Positions 6,239 to 63,139 of a stretch of 64,000 nucleotides of DNA are shown piece by piece. Position 1 is the stretch's first letter; the number at the start of each line of letters is the position of its first letter. Made by a program: the position numbers and the translations under genes. The stretch is from the NCBI GenBank assembly GCA_903925275.1, contig CAIYES010000095.1:11225-75224 (forward strand), written 5' to 3'. This DNA is from an uncultured Bacteroidales bacterium. Lineage in GTDB: Bacteria > Bacteroidota > Bacteroidia > Bacteroidales > FEN-979. The notes beneath the pieces are model-generated. The model searched no databases, was not told the DNA's origin, and saw nothing but the letters and a program-made list of their open reading frames with translations.

Positions 6239-6395
6239 TGACAAGTGACAAATGACAAGTGACAAATGACAAGTGACGAATGACATTTGGATGTCGAATT
6301 TATAAAGTAGTAATCAGGGTATCAAAACTATAATCGAAAATAGAAAAAGATAAGTTCACAGGTCACTTGTCATTTGTCATTCGTCATTTTTTTTA
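6239..6395. repeat. 7-bp tandem array (TGACAAG/TGACAAA, 7 units, 6239-6287) with an inverted partial copy (6362-6386) followed by a T8 run; possibly a long-loop terminator
   Basis: Read directly from the sequence. The reverse complement of 6362-6386 is TGACGAATGACAAATGACAAGTGAC, which can pair with the first array. TGA occurs in all three plus-strand frames. Confidence 0.9.
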
Positions 6396-6426
6396 TTTAG
6401 TTTGAAAGGCTCTAAAATTTATATAC

Positions 6427-7440
6427 ATGGGATTATTTACAAAAGAAATAGCCATCGACTTGGGTACGGCCAATACCATTATTATTTATAACGATAAAGT
6501 AGTTGTTGATGAACCTTCCATAGTTGCCATTGAACGGAGTACCGGAAAAATCATTGCGGTTGGGAAGAAGGCCCAGATGATGCATGGCAAAACCCACGAA
6601 AATATCAAAACTATCCGTCCATTGCGAGGAGGTGTTATTGCCGATTTTCAGGCTGCCGAACACATGATTCGGGCTATGATCAAGATGATTGATCTTCGCA
6701 AATCCTGGTTCCCTCCTGCGCTCAAAATGGTTATTTGTATTCCATCAGGAATTACCGAAGTTGAGGAACGCGCTGTAAAAGACTCTGCCGAACAAGCCGG
6801 AGCAAAAGAGGTTCGCCTTATTCATGAACCTATGGCTGCTGCCATCGGGATCGGTATCGATGTTCTGGAACCGATCGGCAATATGGTTATCGACATCGGC
6901 GGCGGCACCAGCGAAATTGCTGTAATCGCCCTGGGTGGTATTGTTAACAATAAATCGATCCGCATTGCAGGGGATGAATTCAATGCCGACATCGAAGAAT
7001 ACATGCGCAAACAACACAATATAAACGTAGGCGAACGTACGGCAGAACGAATCAAAATAGAGGTCGGTGCAGCACTGGCGGATATAGATAACCCTCCTCC
7101 CGACTATGCCGTACACGGACGTGACCTGCTCACAGGTATTCCTAAAGAGGTTATTGTTAATCATGCTGAAATTGCGCACTGTCTTGATAAATCGGTAGCG
7201 AAAATTGAAGCTGCTGTATTGAATGCACTTGAAATGACACCCCCTGAACTTGCTTCTGATATATTCGAAACAGGCATTTATCTTACAGGAGGTGGCGCAC
7301 TGCTGCGGGGTCTTGATAAACGGATCCACCTGAAGACCAAACTGAAAGTTCATGTTGCCGAGGATCCCCTGCGGGCGGTTGCACGCGGAACAGGCATCGC
7401 ATTGAAAAACTTTGATAAGTTTACCTTCCTCATCAAGTAA
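6427..7440 (+). CDS. mreB: Rod shape-determining protein MreB
   Basis: Actin-fold motifs IAIDLGTANT and VIDIGGGTSEIAV, with 337-aa length typical of MreB. Confidence 0.95.
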   Translation: MGLFTKEIAIDLGTANTIIIYNDKVVVDEPSIVAIERSTGKIIAVGKKAQMMHGKTHENIKTIRPLRGGVIADFQAAEHMIRAMIKMIDLRKSWFPPALKMVICIPSGITEVEERAVKDSAEQAGAKEVRLIHEPMAAAIGIGIDVLEPIGNMVIDIGGGTSEIAVIALGGIVNNKSIRIAGDEFNADIEEYMRKQHNINVGERTAERIKIEVGAALADIDNPPPDYAVHGRDLLTGIPKEVIVNHAEIAHCLDKSVAKIEAAVLNALEMTPPELASDIFETGIYLTGGGALLRGLDKRIHLKTKLKVHVAEDPLRAVARGTGIALKNFDKFTFLIK

Positions 7441-7448
7441 GAGGTACC

Positions 7449-8282
7449 ATGCGGAATCTTTTTTTCTTTCTCCGGAATCACTATTTCTATTTTCTTTTTT
7501 TAGTGTTGGAGACCTTTTCGCTGACTCTGCTTTTTAACTACAATGAATTTCAGGGAAGTTCCCTCTATTCAGTTTCAAATTCCGTATCGGGATATGTAAA
7601 CAGCATGTTCAACGGGATTTCAGAGTACTTTTCGCTCCGGAAAACAAACAGGGTTCTTATTGATGAGATGGCTAAGTTGCATTCCCGCATACCGGAAGCT
7701 TTTTACACGACCGATGTTAATATTTTTTACAAAAAAGATTCCATCGTAAAATTGGAGTACAAATATATCAGCGCAAAAGTGATTAGCAATTCCACAAACA
7801 AACGAAATAATTTCCTGATGATCAACAAGGGCGCAATTCATGGCATTGAAAATCATATGGGCGTGATTATTGGCAATAAAATCGTTGGTCAGGTGGTTAG
7901 CGTTTCTCCTCATTTCAGCTGGATCATGTCAATGCTGAATAAAGACAGCCGAATATCCGGAAAATTCAAAAAGAACAACCAATTGGTGAATGTTGAATGG
8001 AACGGAGGCAGTTATCATATAGGACAGGTAAAGGAAATTCCAAAACATGTTGTGATAGTTAATGGTGATACAATTATAACCAGCGGGAATTCTGACATTT
8101 TTCCTGAAGGGCTTTTGATTGGTACCATCTCTGATTTTACAAAGGTTCAGGATGAAAATTTCAATAACGGAGAGATTTTTTTTTCAACCGATTTTAACAG
8201 TCTCGGATATGTAGAGGTGGTTGTTGATTTGATGCGAAAAGAAAAAGACGATTTAAAGGCATCCTTTAAAACTCAGCAATGA
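7449..8282 (+). CDS. mreC: Rod shape-determining protein MreC
   Basis: N-terminal TM helix and a beta-rich periplasmic domain, positioned between mreB and mreD. Confidence 0.8.
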   Translation: MRNLFFFLRNHYFYFLFLVLETFSLTLLFNYNEFQGSSLYSVSNSVSGYVNSMFNGISEYFSLRKTNRVLIDEMAKLHSRIPEAFYTTDVNIFYKKDSIVKLEYKYISAKVISNSTNKRNNFLMINKGAIHGIENHMGVIIGNKIVGQVVSVSPHFSWIMSMLNKDSRISGKFKKNNQLVNVEWNGGSYHIGQVKEIPKHVVIVNGDTIITSGNSDIFPEGLLIGTISDFTKVQDENFNNGEIFFSTDFNSLGYVEVVVDLMRKEKDDLKASFKTQQ

Positions 8283-8820: not shown

Positions 8821-8824
8821 GAAG

Positions 8825-11203: not shown

Positions 11204-11212
11204 CAGTCTGAT

Positions 11213-15044: not shown

Positions 15045-18000
15045 ATGACCAGTGACCACCTACTTATTATAAAGCTTGATGACTTTATTAGGAAATATTA
15101 TAAAAACCGTCTGATCAGAGGAATAGTAGGATTTTTTACTGTTATTCCGGCATTTTATATATTTCTGGTAATACTGGAATATTTCTTCCATTTTAATCAA
15201 TTTTTGAGAACAGTTTTGTTTTTTTCATTTTCGGGATTTTCAATCTTTTTGTTTGTTAGAGTGGTATTGGTGCCACTTTTGCAGCTATATAAAATCGGGA
15301 AAATTATTACACATGACAAAGCTGCGCAAATAGTTGGACAACATTTTTCAGATATTCAGGACAAACTCCTAAATACATTGCAGTTGATAAAGCAAAAGGG
15401 AATGGTTGACCCTTACTCTGATTTGCTTACAGCTAGTATTGAACAGAAAACAAAAAGCAATGAAAGTTTTCAGATTCAGTGTCGCTATCGATTTCAGAAA
15501 AAACTTACGGTATCTGCGCTTTGCAATACTTCCAATTTCACTTATTCTGTTTATTATAATAATAGCGCCAAATATTATTTCTGAACCTACCAGTCGTATT
15601 GTTCATTTTAACCATGTTTTTGTTGTACCCCCGCCATTTAAAATCGAATTTCTGAATAAAAGCTGGACAACCCTGCAGCAAGAGGATTTTGAACTGAAAA
15701 TTAAAGTAACAGGAGAAGAAATTCCATCTGAAATTTATGTAAAAACAAAGGATTTTGCTGTAAAAATGTGCAAGGGTCAAAGATTTGCATTTTCACATCT
15801 GTTCAAATCACTTCAGAAAAATGTATATTTTAAGTTAGTGGCAGGCGACTATCAGTCGGAGGAATATGAAATTATCGTAAACCCCAAGCCCATCATTCTT
15901 AATTTTGACGTTTTTTTAAAATATCCAATATATATTAATAAGGTTGATGAAAAAGTTGAAAATCTTGGAGATTTTACTATTCCGGAAGGTACAGTGATGA
16001 CATGGAATTTTCATACCAAGGATGTTAGCTCTCTTAGGTTAAGGTTTGATAGTGTTGACATTTTATTATCAAACGCTATCAATCAAAAATTTTCCTATTC
16101 CCAAAAGATCTCAAAATCTTTAAATTATTGTATTTCACCAATAAATGTAAACGTATCTATTCCGGATTCTCTTACTTATCGGATAAGTGTTATACCTGAT
16201 GGATATCCGTCAGTGTTTATTAATGAATCTGCAGACTCAACAATTATTTCAAGCATTTTCTTTAAAGGTACGATTAAGGATGATTACGGTTTTTCCAAAC
16301 TAACTTTTAATTATGGACTTTTTTCAAAGGAAGATTCAATAGTTTCGCCATACAAGGCTGAAAGTGTTATGATTGATAATTCGATAAATAATCAGGTGTT
16401 TTACTTTTCTGCTGATTTAACTAAACTTATGGTTATAAATGGTCAGCATATGAATTATTACTTTGAAGTCTGGGATAATGATGGAATACATGGACCAAAA
16501 TCGGCAAGATCTGAAATGAAAACTATTTCAACACCAACGATTGATGAAATTTCCATACTTACATCAGAGAATGAACAATCAATTAACAAGTTTCTTGAAA
16601 AGAGCATTTCTACTTCGAAAGGGATGACGAAAACAATGGAAAATTTGAGTAAACAGTTAATCGACAAAAACACTTTATCCTGGCAAGAAAAAATGAAAAT
16701 CGAGGATTTGATAAAAGCAAATCGGGATATAGAAGATAAAGTGCAGCAAATCAGAAAGAAAAATGAAAATAATATACTAAACGAAGAGAAATTCCTGAAA
16801 ACGAGTGAACGCATCATAGAAAAACAAAAGCAATTAACTGACTTAATGGAGCAGTTGCTTTCAGAAGAGATGAAAAAAATGGTAAAAGAGATGAAAGATC
16901 TTTTGAATCAGATTGATAAAACAAAACTGGGCAACATGCTGGAGAAGATGAAGTTATTAAATGAAGATCTTGAAAATCAATTAGACAGAAACCTGGCTCT
17001 GATGAAGCAAATCGAATTCGAAAGAATATTAGAGGAATTGGTTAAAGATATTCGAAGTAATGCTGATAACCTGGAATCGCTTGCAAAGGAAACAGATAAT
17101 CAACGTAAGGATAAGGAGGTACTACTACAAAATCAGGAGTCAATTAAAAAGATAGCAGACACCCTGGCAAAGAAAGCAACCTCACTGGAAAAACAAGGAA
17201 AGGAACTGGAAACACCCACTGATATAGGAAATAATAAAAATCTGGAGGATAGTATTGGAAGGAATCTCGCTGAAAGTAAGCAAAAATTAGGAGAAGACAG
17301 AAAAAAGGAGGCTGCGGAGGCACAAAGGAAAGCAGCAAAGCAAATGAAGGAAATGGCGCAGCAAATGGAAGATTCCCAGGAGGAAAGTGAGGATGATCAG
17401 TTAGGAGAGGACGCTTCAAATATTAGAATGATAGTAGAAAATTTGTTGCGCCTTTCATTTGAGCAGGAAGATCTGATTGCAAATACACGTGTCGTCACAA
17501 ACACCGATCCAAAGTACAATGAGATTATTTTGAAACAAAAGGAACTGAGTGAGAAATTGGTGGCTGTAGAAGATTCATTATATGCAATTGCCAAACGGCA
17601 AATTATGATTAAACCAATTGTTTCTAAAGAAATATCAGCAGTAAATCAAAACATCGAATTATCACTTGAGGCTATGAAGATCCATAATATAAATATGGCG
17701 GTAGCAAAACAACAATACGCTATGACCTCCTTAAATAATCTGGCCATCTTGCTTAATGAGTCACTTGAACAGATGAATGAGCAAAAATCGATGAATATGA
17801 AAACTAAAGGAGGAAAGAAATCTTGTCAAAAGCCTACAACAAAAGGGGGAAAAATGTCGGCCAAAGACATGAAGGATTTACAGCAAAAGATTGGAAAACA
17901 ACTTGAAAAGTTAAAGTCCGGGATAGAAGAAGCGAAGAAACAAGGGCTGGGAAAAATGCAGGATAAAAGTGGTATGAATAAAGAAATTGCTAAGCTGGCA

Positions 18001-18399
18001 GCTCAACAGGAAGCCTTGCGTAATCAATTACAAAGTTATCAGGATCAAATGAGTACAAAAAATGCCCAGAATCAGAGTAATTTGAACGAGGTTTCTAAAG
18101 AGATGGAACAAATGGAGAGAGATTTAATAAATAAGAATATTACCCGGGAAACATTTCTACGGCAACAAAATATTGTAACCCGTTTATTAGAGTCTGAAAA
18201 CGCCGAGCAAACAAGGGATCAGGAAGAAAAAAGAGAGGCAACAGAAGCAAAAAATCAAAAAATTGGTAACCCTGGACAAAATTTTCAGTATAACAAGATG
18301 AAGAAAACGAGTTTAGACAACATTCAATTGGTTTTACCGGTCTTAAATTCGTTTTATAAACGTAAAGTTAACAGTTATAGTGTTAAAATTGGACAATGA
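15045..18399 (+). pseudogene. Large membrane-anchored coiled-coil protein (DUF4175-like by recollection), split over two frames by an apparent 1-nt frameshift near 15447-15456
   Basis: ORFs 15045-15584 and 15406-18399 overlap in different frames. Continuity is restored at the A-runs in cagaaaacaaaaagc (IEQKTK then AMKVFRFSVAIDF). The C-terminal half is K/E/Q-rich coiled coil. Confidence 0.55.
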
Positions 18400-18400
18400 T

Positions 18401-18886
18401 ATGAAACACGATGTCAGAGATCTGGTAATAACCGGACATAAAGAAATTACCAAGATTGAAAAATTTGTCGAGGAAATTTGTGACTTTTATAATGTAAACA
18501 ATGACTATTTTGGGAATATTTTATTGGCTACAACTGAAGCAGCTGAAATTTTATTTTCCCTCAATGAATCTTTTGAAATCGATAAGCTGGGAATTAGTTT
18601 CGAACGAACCAGAAAAGGCATGGTTTTCAAAATTAAACTTGTTAATGATTCAAAATTGGAAGTTATTGAAGAAGATTTGCTTGAAAGAGAAATCAGACGT
18701 CATAAATTGTCAAAAGAGATATTTATTATAAAAGCATTAACAGATGAAATTACCATATCTGTTAATGCGAAAAGTATTATTCTGGTGTTTTATATTTCAA
18801 GCATGAATTATGAAAAATCCCTCTATAGAATAAATCAATTGAAAGAATACTGGATAAAAATGGAAAATGTAATTCAAAAAAAGTGA
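18401..18886 (+). CDS. Hypothetical protein; weak resemblance to SpoIIAB-like anti-sigma ATPase-fold proteins
   Basis: The ATG at 18401 lies just after the upstream stop. The gene is tightly packed before ybeY, and no diagnostic motif was recognized. Confidence 0.4.
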   Translation: MKHDVRDLVITGHKEITKIEKFVEEICDFYNVNNDYFGNILLATTEAAEILFSLNESFEIDKLGISFERTRKGMVFKIKLVNDSKLEVIEEDLLEREIRRHKLSKEIFIIKALTDEITISVNAKSIILVFYISSMNYEKSLYRINQLKEYWIKMENVIQKK

Positions 18887-19311
18887 GTGAAAGCATAAAT
18901 TTTTTCAAAGATTCCACGAAGTTCAAACTAGAAAAACGAAGAGAACTCAGGAAGTGGATCAACAATGTTGTGAATTCAGAGAAATGTAATATTGAATGGA
19001 TCAACTTTGTTTTTTGCGATGATAGAATTCTGGCAGATATGAATATTAAATATTTGAATCATAATACTCTGACAGATATTCTAACTTTTTCATTTAGTAA
19101 TAGTGGAGAAAATATTAGTGGAGAGATATACATAAGTGTTCAAAGAGTTAGGGAAAACGCGTCAAATTATAAAGTCACGTTTGAAAAGGAACTGCACAGA
19201 GTGATGATTCATGGAATTCTTCATTTATTAGGATATAAAGATTCTACAAAAACCGAAAAAGATATCATGAGACAGAAGGAAAATTTTTATTTGTCTTATC
19301 TATTTCAATAG
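18883..19311 (+). CDS. ybeY: rRNA maturation endoribonuclease YbeY
   Basis: Zinc-binding motif HRVMIHGILHLLGYKD (HxxxHxxxxxH) in a ~140-aa protein. Confidence 0.9.
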   Translation: MSESINFFKDSTKFKLEKRRELRKWINNVVNSEKCNIEWINFVFCDDRILADMNIKYLNHNTLTDILTFSFSNSGENISGEIYISVQRVRENASNYKVTFEKELHRVMIHGILHLLGYKDSTKTEKDIMRQKENFYLSYLFQ

Positions 19312-19477
19312 ATCGTGCAAAATATCCTTCTTACAATAGTTTTATAATGCCCAGGGTTTTTTAATGTTTTAGCGATATCATTTATTTTATTTTTAGGCTA
19401 TTATAGAATTTAGAGTTCTTATGGAATTATTTATAATACCGTTTTAGATTTGCCAGGATATCAAAGTACAAAGTCAT

Positions 19478-19493
19478 TGTTTCACGTGAAACA
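19478..19493. promoter_or_regulatory. Perfect 16-bp palindrome TGTTTCACGTGAAACA in the mnmG leader; related copy at 21374-21389
   Basis: Read directly from the sequence. It ends 11 nt before the mnmG ATG. A TAGATTTG -7-like box lies at 19445-19452. Confidence 0.3.
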
Positions 19494-19504
19494 TTAAAAA
19501 TCTG

Positions 19505-21373
19505 ATGAGGAAATATGACATTATTGTGGTAGGAGCAGGTCATGCAGGTTGTGAAGCGGCAGCAGCTGCGGCAAATCTGGGATCTAAGGTTTTGTTGATA
19601 ACCATGAATATGTCGAACATGGCTCAAATGTCTTGTAACCCATCAATGGGAGGAATAGCAAAAGGGCAGATAGTGCGTGAAATTGATGCTTTGGGAGGAT
19701 ATTCCGGAATTGTAACTGACCGAACAATGATTCAGTTCAGAATGCTAAATCGTTCGAAGGGACCGGCAATGTGGAGCCCACGGGCTCAAAATGACAGGGT
19801 TTTATTTTCTGTCGAATGGCGCAACATGTTGGAGTGTACCGAGGGGGTAGATTTTTGGCAAGATACAGCAACAGAGATTTTGGTAAAGAAGGATAAAGTT
19901 GTTGGCATAAAAACAGGATTAGGTTTAGTTTTTAATTGCAACGCCATAATTCTGGCAAATGGCACATTTTTAAATGGAATTATATATATTGGTGAGAAGC
20001 AGTTTTCTGGAGGTAGAATCGGAGAACGGGCAGTTAAAAATTTGACAGAACAGTTAATAGGTTTAGGATTTGTTTCAACTAGAATGAAAACCGGAACACC
20101 TGTCAGGGTTGATGGAAGATCACTTGATTTTAAGAAAATGACCGAACAACCCGGTGATGAATACCCGGGGAAGTTTTCCTATACGAATACTCCGAGTTTA
20201 AAAAAACAAAGAAGTTGTTTTATTACATACACAAGTAACGAGGTTCATGATATTTTGAGGACTGGTTTTGACAAATCTCCAATGTTTTCGGGAAGGATAA
20301 TCGGGAAAGGACCTAGATATTGTCCTTCCATCGAGGATAAGATTGACAGGTTTGCTACAAAAGAACGTCATCAGCTTTTTATTGAACCTGAAGGTTGGAA
20401 TACTGTTGAATATTATGTGAACGGGTTTTCCTCTTCTCTTCCGGAAGAAATACAATTCAAAGCGCTTAGAAAAGTTAAAGGATTTGAAAAAGCCAAATTT
20501 TTCAGACCTGGGTATGCTATAGAATATGATTATTTTCCCCCTAATCAATTACATTTTACGCTAGAAACAAAAATTATCGAAGGATTGTATTTTGCAGGGC
20601 AAATAAATGGAACAACTGGATATGAAGAGGCTGCTGCACAGGGTCTGATGGCAGGAATCAATGCTCATAACAAATTAAGGAAGGAACCTGGTTTTGTATT
20701 AAAACGATCTGATGCGTACATAGGGGTTTTAATTGACGATTTGGTCACAAAAGGAACAGAAGAACCATATAGAATGTTTACATCAAGAGCTGAATACAGG
20801 GTACTTCTAAGGCAAGACAATGCTGACCAGCGGTTAACCAAGTTCTCCTGCAATCTTGGTTTGGCTTCAGCAGAGAGGTTGAAAAATGTATTAGAAAAGT
20901 ATAAGAAGATCGATAAGTTGATAAAATTCATTCAGGAGGAAAGTATCATGCCATTGCAGATTAATACCTTGCTAGCTGAAAAAATGACAGATCCGATAAA
21001 CCAGAAATATAAAATGTCGTCAATTTTACTCCGGCCCCAGATATTTTTAAAGGATATTATTGGACATATTGATTCTGTCAGAGATTTTTTTATTGATAAT
21101 GATTTACTCCAAGATGAGATAATTGAAGAAGCGGAGATTAAAATTAAGTACGAGAGCTATATTATAAAAGAACAGGCATTAGCGGATAAAATGTCACACC
21201 TTGAATATCTTTCTTTGGCAGGTGTCACGGACTATTCAAAAATTACCTCTTTGTCGTATGAAGCCCGGGAAAAACTATCAAAAGTTAAACCAGAAACAAT
21301 CGGACAAGCATCCAGGATCAGCGGTGTTTCGCCAGCGGACATATCCGTGCTTATTGTCTACATTGGTCGATGA
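19505..21373 (+). CDS. mnmG: tRNA uridine 5-carboxymethylaminomethyl modification enzyme MnmG (GidA)
   Basis: FAD-binding motif DIIVVGAGHAGCEAA and full-length 622-aa MnmG pattern. Confidence 0.95.
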   Translation: MRKYDIIVVGAGHAGCEAAAAAANLGSKVLLITMNMSNMAQMSCNPSMGGIAKGQIVREIDALGGYSGIVTDRTMIQFRMLNRSKGPAMWSPRAQNDRVLFSVEWRNMLECTEGVDFWQDTATEILVKKDKVVGIKTGLGLVFNCNAIILANGTFLNGIIYIGEKQFSGGRIGERAVKNLTEQLIGLGFVSTRMKTGTPVRVDGRSLDFKKMTEQPGDEYPGKFSYTNTPSLKKQRSCFITYTSNEVHDILRTGFDKSPMFSGRIIGKGPRYCPSIEDKIDRFATKERHQLFIEPEGWNTVEYYVNGFSSSLPEEIQFKALRKVKGFEKAKFFRPGYAIEYDYFPPNQLHFTLETKIIEGLYFAGQINGTTGYEEAAAQGLMAGINAHNKLRKEPGFVLKRSDAYIGVLIDDLVTKGTEEPYRMFTSRAEYRVLLRQDNADQRLTKFSCNLGLASAERLKNVLEKYKKIDKLIKFIQEESIMPLQINTLLAEKMTDPINQKYKMSSILLRPQIFLKDIIGHIDSVRDFFIDNDLLQDEIIEEAEIKIKYESYIIKEQALADKMSHLEYLSLAGVTDYSKITSLSYEAREKLSKVKPETIGQASRISGVSPADISVLIVYIGR

Positions 21374-21397
21374 TGTTCCACGTGAAATATAATCAAA

Positions 21398-37631: not shown

Positions 37632-37661
37632 GTTGTATTTTTTGGCAAAGGTACAGGAAAA

Positions 37662-45699: not shown

Positions 45700-48600
45700 A
45701 TGAGAACAATTTTCAGGCTTTTTGTAGTGCTTGGATTTATTTTTGCTATTCCAGGTCTTTCTGTTTTCAGTCAGGTTAGCATCAAAACCGATGGCAGTCC
45801 ATGCGACCCTTCAGCCATGCTGGATGTGAATGCAAAAGACCGGGGGTTACTCCTCCCGCGTATGTCGGTTGCTGCACGCAACCTGATTCTATCTCCCGCA
45901 ACCGGCCTGCTAATCTACAATACGACTTCGAACCAATTCAATTATTACAATGGCAGTCACTGGTTCCAGTTGGAAACAACCTTTATCATTTTAAAAACCG
46001 CAGGAAGCCCAAGCACAGGCAGCAACGGTGTTGCCATTGGCACTTCACTGGGAACACAGGCGGAAAGTACGGCGATGCTCGACATCAATGATCCGGCCAG
46101 GGGTATGCTGATCCCGAGAATTTCAACCTCAGCCCGCGACCTTATCCCATCGCCTGCCAATGGTTTGATCATTTACAACACATCTTCAAATCTCCTCAAT
46201 TATTACAACAATACCCGTTGGGTTACCGTGTGTGCCAGTTCAACGGGGATAACGGGTGCCAGCGGAAGCCAGGCCTCCGTCGGGATAGCTATCAAATCAG
46301 ACAATTCAAACGCGGATCCATCCGCAATACTGGATGTATCGGCTACCGACAAGGGGGTGCTGATCCCACGACTTACGAATGCCCAGCGTGATGCTATTCT
46401 TCCTGTTACCGGACTGGTCATCTATAATACCATAACCAACAATATTGAATTTTACAATGGCTCAGGCTGGTACCAGTTTGTCACAAACCTGCTCTCATCC
46501 CCATTGGCCGGTATACATGTGCCAACCGGAACAGAGATCACCTGGAACTGGAACAGCGTTGCCGGTGCCATCGGTTATAAATGGAATACGGTCGATGATT
46601 ACACAACGGCGACCGACTTGGCTGCCGTCACCACGAAGACCGAAACAGGTCTCATCCCCATCACAGCCTATTCGAGATATGTATGGGCCTACAACAGTTG
46701 CGGGGTATCGGCAGCGACCACGCTGACACAGTCGACCACAGCCTGGGCGTGCGGCTCTTCATTCACCATTGATCATGTAGCCGGCGATGTGGCACCTGTC
46801 ACAAAAACCGTTACCTACGGTACAGTTCCGAATATTGCGGGTAGTCCTGAAAAATGCTGGATTACCAGAAACCTGGGTGCCGACCAGCAGCCAACGGCCG
46901 TTGATGACGCATCCGAAGCATCGGCAGGCTGGTACTGGCAGTTTAACCGGAAACAGGGTAACAAGGTTGATCAGGATGGCTTCACCCGCAAGCCCGCTGC
47001 CACCTGGACCACGAATATTCTTGAAAGCACTTTCTGGGAGGCCGCCAACGACCCCTGCACCCATGCTCTTGGCAGCGGGTGGCGCATTCCTACTTATACG
47101 GAATGGAACTCAGTAGTAGCGCTCTTTCCAAACCATCTTAATCCATGGATATCTGATTTGAAGCTGCATGCAGCCGGTCGTCTCATCGTAGCCGATGGTT
47201 CACTATTCCAACGAGGTCTCTTCGGTGAATACTGGTGCAGCAATGGTGACGGTCCTTTAATCCCCCCCCCAGGTGTAAATACGAGCATGACCCTCTTCTT
47301 CATCGCTGGAATTATCGAAGCGGGTTTTGGGGTTAACTTTAATGCAACCGGGGAGTCGATGCGCTGCCTCAGAGATGAAGCAAGTTTCACCACTACCCCC
47401 ACCCTCACCACAACGGCTGCCGGCAATATTACTACGACAACGGCAACCGCTGGCGGCAATGTCCTCAGCGAAGGAGGGGTAGCAGGAATTGTAAAGGGTG
47501 TATGCTGGAGCACTTCACCTTTGCCCACCATTGCCGACAACCACACGACCGACGGCAGCGGAACCGGTGTGTTTACAAGCAATTTCAGCGGCCTCACGGC
47601 GAATACCCTTTATTATGCAAGGGCTTATGCTACCAATGGTTCCGGAACCGCTTACGGGAATGAGGTAAGTTTCAGGACCTTCTTCACCTGCGGTACTTCC
47701 ATCACAGTTAACCATGTTGCGGGCGATGTGGCGCCGGTTAATAAAACCGTTACCTACGGCACCGTTGCAAACATTCCCGGCGAACCAGCAAAATGCTGGA
47801 TCACCCGTAATCTGGGCGCCGACCAACAGGCTGCCGTTGATGACGATAACACCTCTGCCGCTGCAGGCTGGTACTGGCAGTTTAACCGCAAACAGGGGTA
47901 CCAGGTTGATATGAACGGGGCCAGAACACCCAATACCAGCTGGATAACCTCAATAAATGAAAACAGTGACTGGGAGGCTGCCAAGGATCCCTGTACCCTT
48001 GAACTTGGCGCTGGCTGGCGTATCCCGGCCATGTCGGAACTGGAGAACCTGGATGCAGGCGGAGCCTGGACCAATGAGAGTTTTCCTTGGAATTCCGGGT
48101 TAAAACTGCATGAAGCCGGGATCATACATGAAAATGATATGTTATTCAACCGCGGAAAGACAGGCTTTTACTGGAGCAATACACAGAACGGCGCTTCAAA
48201 GGGATGGAACCTGTTCTCCGGCGTTGGAACATGTTCCATTGAATCCAACACCAAAGTCAGTGGTATGTCGCTGCGCTGCCTCAACGATGGCGGTGCTACC
48301 ACAACCACACCTGCTGTTACAACGTTGGTTGCCAGCAATATTGCTGCTACTGCAACAACAGGCGGGGGCTATGTTTACAGTGACGGCGGAACTGCTGTAA
48401 CTTCCCGTGGAATTTGCTGGAGTAACGTACCAAATCCTACTTTGGCAAACAGCCATTCAACCAACGGCAGTGGTTCGGGTTTGTTTACTGGCAGCCTCGC
48501 CGGTCTCACACCGAATACCCTGTATTATGTATGTGCATATGCTACCAATGGTAACGGCACTGCCTATGGAAATGAAATAACTGTGACAACCACTACCAGC

Positions 48601-51600
48601 TCAACCTGCGGTACTTCCATTACCATCAATCATATAGCAGGAACCGTAGCGCCGGTGACAAAAACAGTTACTTACGGAACTGTTACAAACATACCCGGTG
48701 AACCGGCAAAATGCTGGATTACCAGCAACCTCGGGGCGGACCACCAGGCTTTGGCAATAGATGATGCCACTGAAGCCGCGGCAGGCTGGTACTGGCAGTT
48801 TAACCGCAAACAAGGGTACAAGCATGATGGAACAACCAGAACACCCCATACCGATTGGGATGAATGGATTTTTGAAAACTTTGACTGGCAGTTTGCCAAC
48901 GATCCCTGTGCCCATGAGATAGGCAGTGACTGGCGTATTCCAACGTATACCGAATGGAATAATGTTGCTGCTGGTGGAAACTGGGTAGACTGGAATGGCC
49001 CGTGGAATTCCGGTTTAAAACTCCATGCAGCAGGTTACCTGTATACTTTCAATGGTGACGGGCTGCACAACCGGGGCGAACTTGAAGATTACTGGAGCAG
49101 TTCACAGGACCCCATCTACCAAGGATGGCACCTGTTTTACCCGGGCAGTATCCAGGGCATGCCCGACGGTGGGGTGTATCATGACGGTAAAAGTTTCGGA
49201 TATCCGCTTCGTTGCATCAAAGATTCGCCCAATCCGCTCATTCCAACAGTAACAACAGCCATTGTGACGGACATCACTTCAAACACCGCCTCAGGTGGAG
49301 GAAACGTCGCTTCCGATGGAGGGGCGCTGGTAACCGCAAAAGGGGTGTGCTGGAGCACCTCGTCAAATCCTACTACTGCCAGCAGTCATACGACAGATGC
49401 CAGCCTCACAGGAGTGTTTTCAAGCAGTCTCACCGGCCTTATACAGAATACGCTATATTATGTTAGGGCATATGCAACCAACAGTGCGGGCACGGCTTAC
49501 GGAACCGGGGTGACATTTACCACCCTGAATTCTGTTCCTCCAACGGTTCTTACAACTGCCGTGACCTCCATCGCTCAAACCACCGCCACCGGCGGAGGAA
49601 ATGTCACCGCCGATGGCGGAGCACCGGTTACAGATCGTGGTGTATGCTGGAGCGCCGCATCAAATCCAACCATCCCCGGGAACAGCCATACCAATGATGG
49701 CAGCGGTACCGGAGTGTTCACCAGCAGTCTCACAGGCCTCACAGCGAATACCCTGTACCACACAAGGGCCTATGCGACCAACAATGCAGGAACGGCTTAT
49801 GGACTGGATTTGACCTTTACCACCCTGCCAAATCCGGTTATTCCAACAGTAACCACAACAGCAGCAACAGTTATAGCTCAAACCACCGCGACCAGCGGAG
49901 GAAATGTCACCGCCAATGGCGGAGCACCGGTTACAAATCGTGGCGTATGCTGGAGCACCGCATCAAATCCAACCATCCCCGGGAACAGTCATACCAACGA
50001 TGGCGGTGGCACCGGAGTGTTCATCAGCAGTCTCACAGGTCTCGCTGCGAATACCCTCTATCATGTCAGAGCGTATTCAACAAACAGCGCGGGTACTGCT
50101 TATGGGACAGACCTGACGTTCACCACATTAAACGGGGTTCTTCCATCGGTAACTACAACATCGGTTACAGAAATCACCAAGACGACTGCCACCGGAGGAG
50201 GGAATGTACTTTCTGACGGCGAAGTTACGGTCACGGCCCGTGGCATATGCTGGAGTACATCATCCCCACCTTTGGTCACGAATTATCATACGACCGATGG
50301 CGGCGGAACCGGGGCATTCACAAGCAGCCTCACCGGCCTGGCCCAGAACACCCGGTATTATGTAAGGGCTTATGCAACAAACAGTATCGGTACCGCTTAC
50401 GGGAATGTAGTAGATTTTTTAACACTCAATCCCTGTCCCGGAATTGAAACCATCACCATAAACCATGTTTCAGGTAATGTATCTCCGGAAAATAAAACCG
50501 TTACCTATGGAACTGTCATGGGTATCCCCGGAGAACCTTCAAAATGCTGGATTACCAGTAACCTGGGCGCCGACCACCAGGCAACCGCTGTTAATGATGC
50601 CACAGAACCTTCGGCAGGATGGTACTGGCAGTTCAACCGGAAGCAGGGATACAAAAACGCCGGATCAACCGTACCGGCATGGACGACAACCTATGTCAAT
50701 GAAAATCTGAACTGGGAGGCTGCCAATGACCCGTGTTTCGTTGAACTTGGTGCCGGCTGGCGTATTCCTACCTCCAGTGAATTGGGTAATGTAAGCGGAA
50801 GCTGGACCAACTGGAACGGTCCATGGAATTCAGGTTTAAAGCTCCATGCTGCCGGGTTCCTGTTCAGCAATGGTTCACTGCAAGCCCGTGGTTCCTATGG
50901 CAATTACTGGAGCAGTGAGCAGTTCGGCAATACCAATGGCTGGTACCTGAATTTTACCAGCACAACCGTCAACCCGGGCATCGTTTCAAAAGCTTACGGC
51001 ATGTCGATCCGCTGCCTGATGGATGCCACGGCCACGGTAACAACAACCGTGGTTACCAATATTGCCTCAACTACCGCCATCTCAGGCGGTAATGTTGTGA
51101 ACGAAGGCTTATCTGCCGTTACTGTCAGGGGTGTTTGCTGGAGCACTACAACATCTCCCACCATCTACGGTAATAATACTGCTGATGGTAGCGGAACCGG
51201 TGTTTTTGTGAGCAACCTGGCCGGTCTTACGCCGAATACATTGTATTATTTAAGGGCCTATGCGACGAACAGTGCCGGAACGGCATATGGGAATGAAGTC
51301 AGTTTCACAACTTCCGCTGTATTTCTCTGCGGATCCTCCCTAACCATCAACCATCTGATATCAGGAGGTGTTGCTCCTGTTGATAAATCAGTAACCTATG
51401 GCACCGTGACTAATTTACCCGGCGAACCTTCAAAATGCTGGATCACAAGTAACCTGGGGGCAAGTCAGCAATCGACCGCCGTGGATGACAATACCGAGGC
51501 TTCTGCCGGCTGGTACTGGCAATTCAACCGGATGCAGGGATACATGAATGATGGTTCAACCTATCCGTCGTGGACGATAACCAGCATCAGTGAAAATGCC

Positions 51601-51930
51601 AACTGGGAACCCGCCAACGACCCGTGTGTCATTGAACTTGGCGCAGGTTGGAGGATACCTACATTTACCGAATGGGACAATGTGAATACATGGGGCGGCT
51701 GGGCAAACTGGGACGATGCCTGGGCCTCTGAGCTCAAACTGCATGCGGCCGGGAACCTTGCTTATTGGTACGGTGGGATATTCTACAACCGGGGTTCACA
51801 GGGCTTATACTGGAGCAGCACGCAGAATGACGATATTACCGGCTATTACCTGTTCCTCTTTTCGGGATATACCACCATGAGTACAATTGAAAAGGCATCC
51901 GGCTGCCCGGTGCGCTGCCTTAAAGAGTAA
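45700..51930 (+). CDS. Giant modular cell-surface protein: 3 N-terminal ~55-aa repeats, 5 Fib_succ_major-like domains and about 10 Fn3-like modules
   Basis: Signal peptide. Repeats (A/S)xLD(V/I)...G(L/M/V)L(L/I)PR...YN(T)...YYNG..W occur 3 times. Modules H(V/I)AG.VAPV.KTVTYGTV...KCWIT.NLGA...GWRIPT..EW...YWSS...RCL occur 5 times. Modules GGNV..DGG..VT.RGVCWS...NTLYY.RAYATN.AGTAYG occur about 10 times. Confidence 0.85.
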   Translation: MRTIFRLFVVLGFIFAIPGLSVFSQVSIKTDGSPCDPSAMLDVNAKDRGLLLPRMSVAARNLILSPATGLLIYNTTSNQFNYYNGSHWFQLETTFIILKTAGSPSTGSNGVAIGTSLGTQAESTAMLDINDPARGMLIPRISTSARDLIPSPANGLIIYNTSSNLLNYYNNTRWVTVCASSTGITGASGSQASVGIAIKSDNSNADPSAILDVSATDKGVLIPRLTNAQRDAILPVTGLVIYNTITNNIEFYNGSGWYQFVTNLLSSPLAGIHVPTGTEITWNWNSVAGAIGYKWNTVDDYTTATDLAAVTTKTETGLIPITAYSRYVWAYNSCGVSAATTLTQSTTAWACGSSFTIDHVAGDVAPVTKTVTYGTVPNIAGSPEKCWITRNLGADQQPTAVDDASEASAGWYWQFNRKQGNKVDQDGFTRKPAATWTTNILESTFWEAANDPCTHALGSGWRIPTYTEWNSVVALFPNHLNPWISDLKLHAAGRLIVADGSLFQRGLFGEYWCSNGDGPLIPPPGVNTSMTLFFIAGIIEAGFGVNFNATGESMRCLRDEASFTTTPTLTTTAAGNITTTTATAGGNVLSEGGVAGIVKGVCWSTSPLPTIADNHTTDGSGTGVFTSNFSGLTANTLYYARAYATNGSGTAYGNEVSFRTFFTCGTSITVNHVAGDVAPVNKTVTYGTVANIPGEPAKCWITRNLGADQQAAVDDDNTSAAAGWYWQFNRKQGYQVDMNGARTPNTSWITSINENSDWEAAKDPCTLELGAGWRIPAMSELENLDAGGAWTNESFPWNSGLKLHEAGIIHENDMLFNRGKTGFYWSNTQNGASKGWNLFSGVGTCSIESNTKVSGMSLRCLNDGGATTTTPAVTTLVASNIAATATTGGGYVYSDGGTAVTSRGICWSNVPNPTLANSHSTNGSGSGLFTGSLAGLTPNTLYYVCAYATNGNGTAYGNEITVTTTTSSTCGTSITINHIAGTVAPVTKTVTYGTVTNIPGEPAKCWITSNLGADHQALAIDDATEAAAGWYWQFNRKQGYKHDGTTRTPHTDWDEWIFENFDWQFANDPCAHEIGSDWRIPTYTEWNNVAAGGNWVDWNGPWNSGLKLHAAGYLYTFNGDGLHNRGELEDYWSSSQDPIYQGWHLFYPGSIQGMPDGGVYHDGKSFGYPLRCIKDSPNPLIPTVTTAIVTDITSNTASGGGNVASDGGALVTAKGVCWSTSSNPTTASSHTTDASLTGVFSSSLTGLIQNTLYYVRAYATNSAGTAYGTGVTFTTLNSVPPTVLTTAVTSIAQTTATGGGNVTADGGAPVTDRGVCWSAASNPTIPGNSHTNDGSGTGVFTSSLTGLTANTLYHTRAYATNNAGTAYGLDLTFTTLPNPVIPTVTTTAATVIAQTTATSGGNVTANGGAPVTNRGVCWSTASNPTIPGNSHTNDGGGTGVFISSLTGLAANTLYHVRAYSTNSAGTAYGTDLTFTTLNGVLPSVTTTSVTEITKTTATGGGNVLSDGEVTVTARGICWSTSSPPLVTNYHTTDGGGTGAFTSSLTGLAQNTRYYVRAYATNSIGTAYGNVVDFLTLNPCPGIETITINHVSGNVSPENKTVTYGTVMGIPGEPSKCWITSNLGADHQATAVNDATEPSAGWYWQFNRKQGYKNAGSTVPAWTTTYVNENLNWEAANDPCFVELGAGWRIPTSSELGNVSGSWTNWNGPWNSGLKLHAAGFLFSNGSLQARGSYGNYWSSEQFGNTNGWYLNFTSTTVNPGIVSKAYGMSIRCLMDATATVTTTVVTNIASTTAISGGNVVNEGLSAVTVRGVCWSTTTSPTIYGNNTADGSGTGVFVSNLAGLTPNTLYYLRAYATNSAGTAYGNEVSFTTSAVFLCGSSLTINHLISGGVAPVDKSVTYGTVTNLPGEPSKCWITSNLGASQQSTAVDDNTEASAGWYWQFNRMQGYMNDGSTYPSWTITSISENANWEPANDPCVIELGAGWRIPTFTEWDNVNTWGGWANWDDAWASELKLHAAGNLAYWYGGIFYNRGSQGLYWSSTQNDDITGYYLFLFSGYTTMSTIEKASGCPVRCLKE

Positions 51931-61192: not shown

Positions 61193-62245
61193 ATGATATT
61201 CAGCAACCTTTCTCACAAGAGCAAACGGAATTTTATTTTTCAGCAGCTTTTTTTCTGGCTGATCAGTGTTGTATTGTTTACTGTAGTGCTCATTTATACC
61301 AGGGGTGATTTTAATTTCTACAGCATCGATCTGCGGCTGACGATCAACATCCTTATTACCATAGGGTTTCTGGCAATCTCGGTGTACATCAACTTATTGT
61401 GGCTGATTCCGGTATTTTTCAATAAAAGAAGATTTTTCTTGTTTTTTCTCCTTGAACTTGCCAACATTCTCCTGTTCATTCTGCTAAATTATTTTGTAAC
61501 CTATTTTTTTGAAGGAGGGAATCATCCGAATTTTATAACCGAATTTGTTGCTGAATTCATTCTGATCCTGCTGTTTCTGATCGTATCAACCTTGCTGCAG
61601 GTAATGCGCGATTCAATCACATTGCAGGATGTAGAGCTGCGGATGAAGGAGGTACAAAAACAAAAGATTGAATCAGAACTCAGAGCGCTCAAAGCGCAGA
61701 TAAATCCTCATTTTTTATTCAACACTCTGAACAGCCTTTATTCCCTGAGTCTCGACAAATCGGAAAAAGCGCCTGAAATGATCCTGAAGCTTTCCGACCT
61801 GATGCGGTATGTTATTTACGAGTCGAATGACGACCTGGTACCGGTATCAAAACAATTGGAATTTCTTCAAAGTTATGTTTACCTGGAACGGTTGCGTGCC
61901 GATGAAAACCTTAAAATCGAGTTCGAAGTAAAGGGCAATAATTTTGAACTTAAAATCGCTCCGCTATTGTACATTGCATTTATTGAAAATGCATTTAAAC
62001 ATGGATCGAAAGCGAAAAGTGACAATCCTTTTATTCATATTGCATTTGATCTGGAACACCAAGACCGGATTGGTTTCTTCATTGAAAACAGGATGGACAC
62101 GTTTCATGAAAAAACACCTTCCGGCGGATTTGGGTTGTCTAATGTTAAAAAGCGGCTTGAATTGCTATATCCCGGCAGGTATATATTGAATATTCGTGAA
62201 ATATCATCTGTTTATCGGGCAGAATTAACTATTTTAGTCGCATGA
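61193..62245 (+). CDS. LytS/YehU-type sensor histidine kinase
   Basis: TM N-terminus, QINPHFLFNTLNSLYSL block and a C-terminal HATPase. Paralogous to 54251-55276. Confidence 0.85.
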   Translation: MIFSNLSHKSKRNFIFQQLFFWLISVVLFTVVLIYTRGDFNFYSIDLRLTINILITIGFLAISVYINLLWLIPVFFNKRRFFLFFLLELANILLFILLNYFVTYFFEGGNHPNFITEFVAEFILILLFLIVSTLLQVMRDSITLQDVELRMKEVQKQKIESELRALKAQINPHFLFNTLNSLYSLSLDKSEKAPEMILKLSDLMRYVIYESNDDLVPVSKQLEFLQSYVYLERLRADENLKIEFEVKGNNFELKIAPLLYIAFIENAFKHGSKAKSDNPFIHIAFDLEHQDRIGFFIENRMDTFHEKTPSGGFGLSNVKKRLELLYPGRYILNIREISSVYRAELTILVA

Positions 62246-62958
62246 ACATCCGGTGTTTAATAATCGATGATGAACCGCTTGCACAGCGTGTCATTGAAAA
62301 GTATACTGAGAATATTCCGTTTCTCGAGATCGTCGGGAAATGCAGCAATGCGGTTGAAGCCATTGAAGTGCTGCATAACCGGGAGGTTGATCTTTTATTC
62401 CTGGATATCAACATGCCAAGGCTTAATGGCATGGACTTTCTTAAAACCCTGAAAAACCCGCCATTGGTCATCATTACCACGGCCTATGCTGAATATGCCA
62501 TCCAGGGGTATGAGCTTGATGTAGTTGATTATCTGATGAAACCGTTTGCTTTTGACCGGTTTTACAAGGCCATCCAGAAAGTCGAAGAGATGATAAAAGG
62601 GAGGGAAATACCCCAAACCGAAGCCAAAGAGGCAACCAGACAGGAAGAGACCTTCATTTTTGTCAAATCAAGTAAAAAAACCTATAAGGTCAACCTGGAT
62701 GAAATCCTTTACATTGAAGCTTTGGGAGATTATGTAAAGATATACACCACAGAGAAAATGATTATCAGCTACCAGTCGCTGAAGAATATTGAATCACTCC
62801 TGCCGGCCTCCTCTTTCCCGCGGATTCATAAATCATTTATCATAGCCTTGTCGCGTATTGATCTGATCGAGGGGAATCACGTAAAGATCAAAGACCGGCA
62901 GATTCCGATCGGCACTAATTTTAAATCTGAATTTGAGAGGCTTATTAAATCTATTTAA
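62242..62958 (+). CDS. LytTR-family response regulator
   Basis: Receiver domain (IIDDEP, DLLFLDINMP, KPF) plus LytTR domain (ILYIEALGDYVKIYT, RIHKSF). It overlaps the kinase stop by 4 nt. Confidence 0.9.
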   Translation: MNIRCLIIDDEPLAQRVIEKYTENIPFLEIVGKCSNAVEAIEVLHNREVDLLFLDINMPRLNGMDFLKTLKNPPLVIITTAYAEYAIQGYELDVVDYLMKPFAFDRFYKAIQKVEEMIKGREIPQTEAKEATRQEETFIFVKSSKKTYKVNLDEILYIEALGDYVKIYTTEKMIISYQSLKNIESLLPASSFPRIHKSFIIALSRIDLIEGNHVKIKDRQIPIGTNFKSEFERLIKSI

Positions 62959-63083
62959 TGCAGGCCATGCAAACAATGCAGGCAATGCAGGCAATGCAAA
63001 CAATGCAGGCAATGCAAACAATGCAGGCAATGCAGGCAATGCAAACAATGCAGGCAATGCAAACAATGCAGGCAATGCAGGCA
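62958..63083. repeat. 9-bp tandem array, 14 units (ATGCAGGCA / ATGCAAACA), beginning at the response-regulator stop codon (TAATG)
   Basis: Counted directly. Higher-order 45-nt periodicity (units A G G A G). It is open on the plus strand as MQAMQTMQAMQA...I, with the stop at 63087-63089. Confidence 0.95.
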
Positions 63084-63111
63084 ATTTAAATTATGCAGGA
63101 ATGTATTAATT

Positions 63112-63139
63112 ATTGCCTATTGCCTACTGCCTACTGCCT
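63112..63139. repeat. 7-bp tandem array, 4 units (ATTGCCT / ACTGCCT), partly complementary to the preceding 9-mer array
   Basis: Read directly. The reverse complement AGGCAAT is contained in the GCAGGCAAT unit. Confidence 0.85.

Follow-up and report, generated by a model that had tools for sequence, protein, structure and literature searches.

The 64-kb window analysed here, a stretch of 64,000 nucleotides (nt) of contig CAIYES010000095.1 from an uncultured freshwater Bacteroidales bacterium, carries eight tandem arrays with units of 7, 8 or 9 nt, six of which lie between genes. Our data show that, in related MAGs (metagenome-assembled genomes), the same few units occur at many intergenic sites of one genome and that the G-rich strand of the arrays reads away from the open reading frame (ORF) that they abut, and we consider it rather probable that the arrays belong to the known class of long simple sequence repeats (LSSR) or short tandemly repeated repetitive (STRR) sequences, present here in a Bacteroidota core chromosome. 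Array detection was carried out with Tandem Repeats Finder (TRF) on the window, and the arrays are placed as follows:

6239-6287 (TRF 6239-6285), plus strand: heptamer array TGACAAG/TGACAAA (TGACAAR), 6.7 copies, left arm of a hairpin, 24 nt from the purH stop codon (6212-6214)
6288-6361, plus strand: unique spacer of 74 nt, the hairpin loop in the minimum-free-energy (MFE) fold
6362-6389, plus strand: inverted heptamer array GTCAYTT, the right arm, 4 copies, with a T8 tract (6387-6394) at its end (feature 6362-6394); the mreB ATG (6427) lies 37 nt from the array end at 6389 and about 32 nt from the end of the T8 tract
35425-35452, inside the minus-strand ORF 34221-35666: further coding nonamer array, TTTGTTCCG x3.1, in frame
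37660-37782, plus strand: octamer array GGTGARAT (GGTGAAAT/GGTGAGAT), 15.4 copies, 94% matches, 123 nt, between the divergent genes for asd (ATG 37631, minus strand, 28 nt away) and the LTD/CHU_C protein (ATG 37872, 89 nt away)
37891-37961, plus strand: nonamer array ATTGYCTGC, 6.6 copies, in frame, beginning 19 nt into the ORF of the 878-aa LTD/CHU_C protein
42964-42996, plus strand: octamer array GGTGAAAT, 4.1 copies, following the TAA (42961-42963) of an ABC ATPase gene with zero gap and lying 20 nt before the RNase R ATG (43017)
62957-63103, plus strand: nonamer array AATGCAGGC/AATGCAAAC, 147 nt, its first unit overlapping the TAA (62956-62958) of a LytTR response-regulator (RR) gene, with a 28-nt spacer between it and the heptamer array near LysE
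63112-63139 (TRF 63114-63139), minus strand: heptamer array GTAGGCA (plus strand TGCCTAC), 3.7 copies; the convergent LysE gene has its stop (63143) 3 nt away

An earlier note on this DNA had listed perfect arrays close to start and stop codons, and TRF recovers every one of them, together with the coding nonamer array at 35425-35452. The repeats are, however, not perfect, as unit-level identity is only 78-94% with alternating unit variants, and higher-order periods of 14 nt, 18/27 nt and 45 nt are apparent, which match better than the unit period at 14 nt (96% vs 82%, in the TGACAAR array at 6239), at 18 nt (94% vs 81%) and at 45 nt (94%, 3.3 copies, vs 81% at period 9, in the nonamer array at 62957-63103). 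The relation that the note had drawn between the two nonamers is correct, the reverse complement of ATTGCCTGC being GCAGGCAAT, and the LysE-side heptamer (ATTGCCT / CTGCCTA; ATTGCCT[GC]) is, judged from its units, a shortened inverted derivative of the nonamer ATTGCCTGC, so that the spacer between the response regulator and LysE would also have an inverted arrangement. The intergenic arrays lie 0-37 nt from the start or stop codon nearest to them; the few nt that had been proposed for all of them hold at 42964 (0 nt), 62957 (overlap) and 63139 (3 nt), but not at 6239 (24 nt), 37660 (28 nt) and 6389 (37 nt). Similarly, TGA, which had been attributed to every plus-strand frame of the heptamers and octamers, stands in all plus-strand frames only in the arrays at 6239, 37660 and 42964, whereas those at 6362-6389 and 63114-63139 have no plus-strand stop and carry their stops (TGA, TAG) on the minus strand, reading away from the adjacent gene. 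The minus strand of the octamer array is stop-free in all frames, and spurious ORF calls on that strand run through the array.

The only coding arrays of the window are the two 9-mers at 37891-37961 and 35425-35452. The former was rightly placed in a coding frame, where it encodes (I-V/A-C)n, IVCIACIVCISCIVCIS. This stretch lies within the signal-peptide hydrophobic core of the 878-aa LTD/CHU_C protein, which is of the type IX secretion system (T9SS) type; the signal peptide reads MKTFYSSIVNIVCIACIVCISCIVCISSISQAQ. The minus-strand ORF 34221-35666 around the latter is multihaem cytochrome c-like, and a matching coding repeat (CCGTTTGTT x3.6) is carried by the collected locus L186 (L186:514-545), so that the coding repeat TTTGTTCCG/CCGTTTGTT appears, from its sequence, to be conserved between species.

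The density of arrays is beyond that of ordinary sequence, as had been supposed. The window contains eight arrays of period 7-9 with TRF scores of 42-252, while 100 dinucleotide-preserving shuffles gave 1 array in total, with a maximum score of 48, and an unselected control of 451 kb of Bacteroidota-like metagenome loci, which came from a metagenome scan with an asd query and represents relatives at <=65% identity with no orthologous intergenic regions, contained 15 arrays, a single locus accounting for 5 of these. Chance thus does not explain the arrays of the window. The arrays recur in assemblies of lake metagenomes (ENA ERZ27313313, ERZ27313350, ERZ18642253/BUCK21 and ERZ14268xx; Logan ERR4194093) and in one NCBI MAG contig, and their presence in at least five independent assemblies argues that they are not the assembly artefact which the earlier note had considered. 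They are not clustered regularly interspaced short palindromic repeats either, as the units of 7-9 nt stand head to tail with no spacers. Rfam 15 at gathering score found only two tRNAs in the window, with no family at the arrays; nine related loci, among them the Hymenobacter palindromes described below, likewise had no match. In addition, sigma-70 promoter and terminator consensus sequences had fewer matches around the arrays than in shuffles, a consensus that is unsuited to Bacteroidota promoters.

Dispersal and polarity of the arrays

A scan of 185,579 species genomes for three consecutive GGTGARAT units found this pattern at at least 111 loci, mostly in Bacteroidota genomes; the source genome of the window is not among the matches listed. 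These matches include over 25 contigs of Kiruna_bin-10044, a MAG of a lake member of the Bacteroidales, over 12 Hymenobacter species or MAGs, other Bacteroidales MAGs, Microscillaceae, Flavobacteriales, Leyella stercorea, Myroides, Proteiniphilum and Chitinophagaceae, as well as about 12 loci outside the Bacteroidota (Rahnella, Hyphomicrobiaceae, Desulfobulbaceae and others). The same pattern was found 0 times in 2.9 million viral contigs, and carriage by phages is therefore unsupported. In 830 kb of related loci, TRF found 103 arrays of period 7 and 173 of period 8 (124 of them of the searched family), with <=12 for any other period, which leaves 103 heptamers, 49 octamers and 12 nonamers outside the search selection. 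Such unselected units also recur within one genome, since the Kiruna MAG carries ACATCGT at 8 loci (up to 30 copies), the AGGATGC/ATCCCGC family at 8 loci and AGATATC at 4, often directly beside octamer arrays as mosaics.

Within the window, GGTGAAAT occurs at 2 loci and the nonamer family at 2 loci, and no additional array is present in the 10 kb beyond the window. Contigs of other assemblies end inside the arrays (L002, L004, L205), and in the MEGAHIT assembly ERZ27313313 two contigs, RR-array-pth (L001:10740-11238) and lpd-array-LysE (L204:8326-8687), are cross-joined through the nonamer array; the junction of lpd, the dihydrolipoyl-dehydrogenase gene, in L204 (CATCTT-TAA-TGCAGGCAATGCAAAC) shares its register with the RR junction TTTAATGCAGGC. 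These cross-joins indicate that the genome has at least one further nonamer locus, which, to judge by the joined genes, is probably lpd|pth. Together with related MAGs in which a small set of units fills dozens of loci, they bear out the suggestion of a dispersed, genome-wide kind of repeat. Among the control relatives, an octamer array (GAGTTATT x4.1) lies shortly downstream of asd in two (L125:4728-4760, L183:350-382), and five arrays stand within 11.7 kb of L125; genomes rich in arrays thus lie scattered among array-poor relatives.

The position of the arrays relative to genes follows a clear orientation. For the ORF context, arrays with a period that is not a multiple of 3 were masked, as the octamer minus strand otherwise reads as coding. 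For GGTGARAT arrays, the median distance to an ORF boundary is 3.5 nt at the 5' end of the G-rich strand and 83.5 nt at its 3' end (68/88 arrays, p = 3e-7), and among unselected heptamers and octamers the 5' side of the strand with more G than C is nearer the ORF in 72/99 (p = 7e-6). The rule is obeyed by 6/6 intergenic arrays of the window. The positional bias that had been expected is therefore present, although as strand polarity relative to the gene and not as a property of the plus strand. With a same-strand ORF, the GGTGARAT array begins 0-8 nt past the stop or itself supplies the TGA (median 1 nt, n=61); with an opposite-strand ORF, (ATYTCACC)n ends 0-16 nt before N-termini such as MKILITGAKGQLGNEL..., MLKGKKIVLGITGSIAAYKS..., MPKLTHIDQSGKACMVDVS... 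and MPKHLVVLTGAGVSAESGI..., which were judged genuine-looking by eye. Unselected arrays behave in the same manner, as those proximal to leaders have more C than G in 24 vs 4 cases and a sense-strand ATG in 1 vs 8, and trailer arrays have sense-strand stops in 32 vs 13. Arrays lie between divergent ORFs in 21 cases and between convergent ORFs in 44, against a baseline of 105 vs 121. Mimicry of a Shine-Dalgarno sequence by GGTGA was considered and dropped, because units without such likeness behave alike.

Array turnover, hairpins and genomic setting

As the earlier note had anticipated, unit number differs between strains, and it does so at four arrays. The purH|mreB heptamer array is 14 nt (2 units) shorter in L118 and L119, one strain with a few flanking single-nucleotide polymorphisms (SNPs); the octamer array at 37660-37782 has one more unit (+8 nt) in L116, with flanks otherwise identical; the LysE-side heptamer has 6.7 copies in L205 vs 3.7 in the window (+3 heptamers); and the nonamer array in L204 lacks 45 nt, which equals one higher-order block. 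Copy numbers are 3.7-15.4 in the window and 3-30 across related loci, with no preferred number. Changes of this kind are usually attributed to replication slippage or unequal exchange. Read as alignments, these differences show that arrays resize in place by blocks of one to five units, and the higher-order periods show apparent array growth by duplication of 2-5-unit blocks. Whole modules, by the same kind of comparison, are seen to be gained or lost between close strains: the entire 145-nt module of array, spacer and inverted array is missing in the sister strain L120, where the purH-mreB spacer is 67 nt long, and in more distant relatives the gap between the two genes is only 5 or 11 nt, which makes the module a lineage-specific, dispensable gain.

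About a quarter to a third of the arrays are accompanied by an inverted partner, with which they would form long hairpins. Units of the inverted partner were found in the 3' flank of up to 26/124 GGTGARAT arrays and in the 5' flank of 0, and among the arrays of period 7-9, 73/288 have such a partner no more than 250 nt away. The purH|mreB spacer (6215-6426) folds as a single long hairpin (-56.3 kcal/mol and z -6.4, with none of the shuffles folding as well), directly followed by the U8 tract, and an inverted pair at an orthologous site in L074 gave a fold z of -6.1. Single arrays are predicted to have next to no structure in either strand (64 nt, -3.2 and 0.0 kcal/mol), and no G-quadruplex was predicted for (GGUGAAAU)8 by ViennaRNA with the G-quadruplex option, the window units having at most GG. 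The spacer at 62950-63150 folds overall no better than shuffles (z -0.96); its MFE structure pairs the LysE-side 7-mer with the end of the 9-mer array (63070-63140), locally only. The loop of the purH|mreB module has no second copy in the window or in 1.5 Mb of collected loci.

A further arrangement was observed in Hymenobacter (L007, L017, L047, L055, L062, L080, L088, L089, L091, L108), in which a shared structured palindrome fills the space between ORF ends. This composite has the form (GGTGARAT)n-GTTTGATGTTC-[30-40 nt, often GCGC...GCGC]-GAACATCAAAC-(ATYTCACC)m, and in L062 (e.g. L062:5371-5520) it folds with -93 kcal/mol and z -10. By its layout it looks like a family resembling repetitive extragenic palindromic (REP) sequences or miniature inverted-repeat transposable elements (MITE), with tandem-repeat arms.

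Syntenic loci of related species, at about 70-80% nucleotide identity, allow the arrays to be followed at the same sites. One of these, L185 (GCA_026391835.1), has octamer arrays at both octamer sites of the window with a different unit, as its asd spacer carries (ACRGGCGG)x6, positioned relative to the conserved block GTTTTTATCAAC as in the window, and (GACAGGCG)x3.4 overlaps the TGA stop of its ABC ATPase gene; its signal peptide carries the same nonamer as the window, in 4.7 copies. L186 and L187 have no array at either octamer site, and their signal peptide is array-free and normal (MKNIFLVCLLLPLVTTAQV). No remnant of the L185 unit ACRGGCGG was found in the window, with up to 3 mismatches allowed. 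Upstream of the gene starting MTIIEQIIAKHS, L074 has an inverted pair of the window nonamer family and the Kiruna MAG locus L079 an octamer inverted pair (AAGGATTG / CCTTCATT), and site and unit are both kept in the orthologous pairs L024/L033, L034/L081 and L035/L051. From these alignments, site orthology of arrays between species is suggestive; independent occupation of two given sites at the array density of L185 is not very improbable (~0.1 by rough estimate). In addition, L185 carries at L185:4932-5442 a 128-aa gene of the 23S_rRNA_IVP family between the LTD and phosphoribosyltransferase genes, which is absent from the window and is bracketed by inverted heptamer arrays (upstream AAAATGC x7.7, downstream TGCATTT x6), both of which abut the end of an ORF.

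The window is core chromosome, with purH-mreB-mreC-mreD, folB, glnS, gltX, ybeY, mnmG, gldH and asd identified by Pfam, as well as genes for the 878-aa LTD/Big_5/CHU_C secreted protein, the ABC ATPase, RNase R (rnr), two LytTR two-component pairs and LysE. Its CHU_C domain, GldH and the purH-mreBCD order mark it, at the level of gene content, as coming from a gliding, T9SS-bearing member of the Bacteroidota. No mobile-element gene or transposase was found among 20 window ORFs scanned with Pfam, and the neighbours of the arrays are mostly housekeeping genes (purH, mreB, asd, rnr, ABC ATPase) with no common function. Upstream of asd and separated by 6 nt from the octamer array, TACCTTTG (37646-37653, minus strand) matches TAnnTTTG, the -7 promoter motif of Bacteroidetes; should this motif be in use, the upstream half of the asd promoter would be taken up by the array.

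Three other regions are unusual. A 2076-aa ORF at 45700-51930 (PTL_trimer, fn3 and Lcl_C matches) lies in a stretch of 51-53% G+C vs about 41% elsewhere and has internal repeats of about 70% identity, which appear in L185 as several paralogous genes, and may encode a horizontally acquired or fast-evolving surface protein. Positions 16000-22000, which cover a 997-aa DUF4175 protein, ybeY and mnmG, have a G+C of 33-36%, a strong positive GC skew of 0.15-0.23 and an AT skew. About 2 kb left of the window start (L206:879-937, L207:459-517), a 29-nt unit GCCGCATCGCAATGCGGCTCTACAATAAC with its own small hairpin, GCCGCAT...ATGCGGC, occurs twice, and this duplication is, from its make-up, a different, terminator-like element.

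Origin of the arrays and rival explanations

Here we propose that the arrays resize by replication slippage or unequal exchange and that their polarity is at least in part due to only some insertions being tolerated. Behind a stop codon, the transcript would contain the G-rich strand, which usually has stops in three frames and would be harmless in any register; before a start codon, it would carry the C-rich strand and hence a G-poor, ATG-free and unstructured leader. Bacteroidota initiate translation without Shine-Dalgarno pairing, and the C-rich leader may be tolerated because it suits this mode of initiation, while the G-rich strand, which contains ATG or GTG as well as stops, would create upstream starts and structure in a leader. 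Facing arrays would probably form a long hairpin that ends or insulates transcription, as at purH|mreB with its U8 tract and between the convergent response-regulator and LysE genes, and the in-gene 9-mer would merely lengthen the hydrophobic core of the signal peptide. Most arrays would then probably be near-neutral filler with local cis effects and not one regulatory system. The earlier note had suggested a repeat system involved in termination, translational insulation or slippage-based phase and length variation, and this interpretation is partly supported, its observation being confirmed with the corrections given above: dispersal and slippage-type length variation are supported, hairpin termination is plausible, on the fold predictions, at paired arrays such as purH|mreB with U8, and translational insulation is also plausible, trailer arrays tending to carry sense-strand stops in all frames.

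Several points weigh against this account. Slippage explains resizing but not how one unit reaches many sites, and it leaves unexplained that GGTGAAAT stands at two window sites where L185 has GACAGGCG at the same two; tolerance does not obviously explain why arrays begin 0-8 nt from stops and not anywhere in the trailer. With about 70% of the arrays unpaired, hairpin termination cannot be the role of these, and the purH|mreB hairpin itself is not needed, as relatives manage with 5-11 nt between the two genes. The GGTGARAT loci were chosen by the search pattern, the figure of at least 111 being a lower bound, and the gene models in related loci come from our own longest-ORF heuristic with arrays masked and no gene finder. 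The additional octamer in L116 may be an assembly effect, given an array of 123-131 nt that is close to short-read or k-mer length, and every functional statement on the arrays is inferred.

An alternative that we regard as unlikely is that the arrays form the arms of a palindromic mobile element, similar to MITE or to REP and bacterial interspersed mosaic elements (BIME), which is moved by a transposase and of which single arrays would be half-elements. The presence or absence of the 145-nt module between close strains (L120), the structured composite with a conserved core that Hymenobacter species share and the inverted heptamer arrays around the 23S_rRNA_IVP gene of L185 would be in line with such an element, and terminal inverted repeats alone would yield the outward-facing polarity. 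However, the spacer of the window module is unique in the collected sequence, the spacers of inverted pairs in the Kiruna MAG are mutually unrelated, no target-site duplication was noticed at the L120 junction, where no formal test was made, and about 70% of the arrays are unpaired, with junction registers that differ between loci; the 0 transposases in the 20 window ORFs and 0 matches in 2.9 million viral contigs likewise speak against it. Quite improbable in our estimation is a regulatory network in which the arrays are binding sites or structures for a trans-acting factor (a protein, the ribosome, Rho or a G-quadruplex binder). Rho prefers unstructured, C-rich and G-poor RNA, which the C-rich strand of the arrays would provide, and both the recurrence of GGTGARAT across genomes of very different G+C (Hymenobacter, Bacteroidales, Flavobacteriales, Microscillaceae) and the tight, oriented placement by start and stop codons would suit a trans-acting factor, an idea that was also proposed for the TAACTGA (PMC4679880) and GGGNATC (PMC4692102) repeats. 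Against it stand the many unrelated units that act alike in one genome, the different units at orthologous sites, the presence and absence between strains beside essential genes, the neighbours without common function, the lack of a predicted G-quadruplex for GGUGAAAU and copy numbers from 3 to 30, none of them preferred.

Phase variation, in which the arrays would be contingency loci whose slippage switches or tunes neighbours such as the T9SS-secreted protein, had been put forward in the earlier note and is in our view highly improbable. Although unit number varies, and one array lies on the promoter side of the secreted-protein gene and another inside its signal peptide, the heptamers and octamers stand outside ORFs, the in-frame arrays have period 9 and permit no frameshift or frame switch, the octamer lies upstream of a promoter-proximal block that is kept in L185 and not between the LTD promoter elements, and most neighbours (purH, mreB, asd, rnr, ABC ATPase) are housekeeping genes; Rehm et al. 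rejected phase variation for the GGGNATC repeats on the same grounds (PMC4692102). The chance that the arrays are assembly or sequencing artefacts is practically negligible. Short-read assemblers do break or cross-join at the arrays, the longest of which is close to k-mer and read length, but arrays and flanks are identical in at least five independent assemblies of different samples and pipelines, a clean two-unit difference is found in a strain with flanking SNPs, and other species have orthologous arrays, with the 9-mer in frame in a conserved gene.

Beyond passive slippage, a genome-specific process that writes or homogenises the arrays can be envisaged, which we hold to be very unlikely. 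It is brought to mind by GGTGAAAT at both window sites against GACAGGCG at both L185 sites, by the inverted pair that L074 and L079 keep at one site, as 9-mer vs 8-mer, and by a geometry that is always ORF - G-strand out ... G-strand out - ORF (up to 26 vs 0). In one variant, an intergenic break would receive G-rich repeats at the 3' end on either side before being rejoined; in another, a templated or gene-conversion mechanism would rewrite the hairpin arms in concert. The block-wise higher-order periods argue, as patterns in the units, that array growth at least is ordinary slippage. If such a process were real, repeats at the gene boundaries of Bacteroidota would be written or turned over in concert by a mechanism that has so far escaped notice, and the same would extend to Xanthomonas and Nostoc. 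Returning to our proposal of slippage and tolerated insertions, natural presence/absence and copy-number variants exist in public lake metagenomes, and the spread of units, the cause of polarity and termination at paired arrays could thus be tested by read-level population analysis. In addition, the arrays are of practical concern, as they break or mis-join short-read MAG assemblies into chimeric contigs and yield spurious ORF calls, such as a 43-aa ORF inside the 9-mer array in ERZ1426828.

Relation to known repeat classes

The REP and BIME elements are single imperfect palindromes of about 20-40 nt, linked to REP-associated tyrosine transposases (RAYT) and present in hundreds of copies. Like those of Enterobacteria and Pseudomonas, the arrays described here are extragenic, lie just past stops, often form inverted hairpin pairs and are present or absent between strains, but their arms are tandem arrays of 7-9-nt units and no RAYT was found among the 20 window ORFs scanned. 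The contingency simple sequence repeats of Haemophilus and Neisseria are located in ORFs or between promoter elements of surface and virulence genes, the expression of which they switch; the arrays share with them a unit number that is variable by slippage and, for some repeats, a promoter-proximal position (7-bp repeats), and differ in that heptamers and octamers are outside ORFs, in-frame arrays have period 9 and neighbours are housekeeping genes.

A closer likeness is found with the STRR sequences of cyanobacteria, which comprise few unit families, mostly heptamers, in tandem at many non-coding sites of one genome and with a sporadic phylogenetic distribution. The window units differ from STRR1-3 and the host is a member of the Bacteroidota, and octamers were, unlike in STRR, as prominent as heptamers in the sampled loci, a sample that was selected for the octamer. 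Dispersed 7-8-nt tandem families have been known since the cyanobacterial STRRs, without an established function or spread mechanism; our literature search for the octamer sequence and for octamer repeats in Bacteroidota returned nothing relevant, and no later mechanistic paper on the heptamer class was found in it. New in the present study are the Bacteroidota octamer family GGTGARAT at at least 111 loci and examples of a kept site and hairpin architecture with the unit replaced.

Both the repeat class and its positional rule have already been published (PMC4692102, PMC4679880), a fact that the earlier note lacked, as it did the finding that many arrays are inverted hairpin pairs. The LSSR of Mrazek et al. 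2007, as they are summarised in a later paper, are tandem repeats of 1-11-nt units longer than expected by chance given the composition of the genome; in genomes rich in those of 5-11 nt, heptamers are commonest and multiples of three are tolerated in ORFs, and polymerase slippage was proposed as their cause (PMC4679880). The arrays described here likewise exceed chance, heptamers are commonest among the unselected ones, and only 9-mers are coding.

For Beggiatoaceae, Cyanobacteria and five Bacteroidetes, MacGregor 2015 described arrays of TAACTGA and other heptamers by start and stop codons (PMC4679880), which are long and mosaic in Gramella, Aequorivita and Elizabethkingia, have relatives without them and form the ends of contigs (PMC4679880). 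Like this class, the window arrays are intergenic, near start or stop codons and provided with stops in all frames in one orientation, close relatives are without arrays at the same gene pairs, and contigs stop in the arrays. In BOGUAY, the stop-containing forward strand of TAACTGA faces the downstream start, whereas here the stop-containing G-rich strand faces away from the abutted ORF; the leader-side strand is also ATG- and G-poor here, and the units are others, with no TAACTGA array detected in the window by TRF.

The positional rule itself was reported by Rehm et al. 2015 for GGGNATC (GGGAATC / GGGGA(C/T)T) arrays in Xanthomonas and Nostoc, which lie nearer to the 5' neighbouring ORF whatever the orientation of this ORF, on the sense strand where they follow a stop and on the antisense strand where they precede a start (PMC4692102). 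These repeats are rare between divergent ORFs, form inverted pairs, have housekeeping neighbours and no known function, and two species share sites that differ in length and sequence (PMC4692102). The units GGTGARAT, TGACAAR, AATGCAGGC and TGCCTAC are, unlike GGGNATC, without G3-4 tracts, with no quadruplex predicted for GGUGAAAU, and they come with periods of 8 and 9 besides 7, no four-unit preference and a Bacteroidota host. The polarity rule is thereby independently confirmed in a third phylum, for units unable to form quadruplexes, which weakens the explanation of the rule by G-quadruplexes. Otherwise the likeness is close, as the window arrays are dispersed, intergenic and variable in unit number under an identical positional rule, and those of the related loci are under-represented between divergent ORFs, form inverted pairs, vary in length and sequence at the same site and have housekeeping neighbours, as described for the GGGNATC repeats of Xanthomonas and Nostoc.

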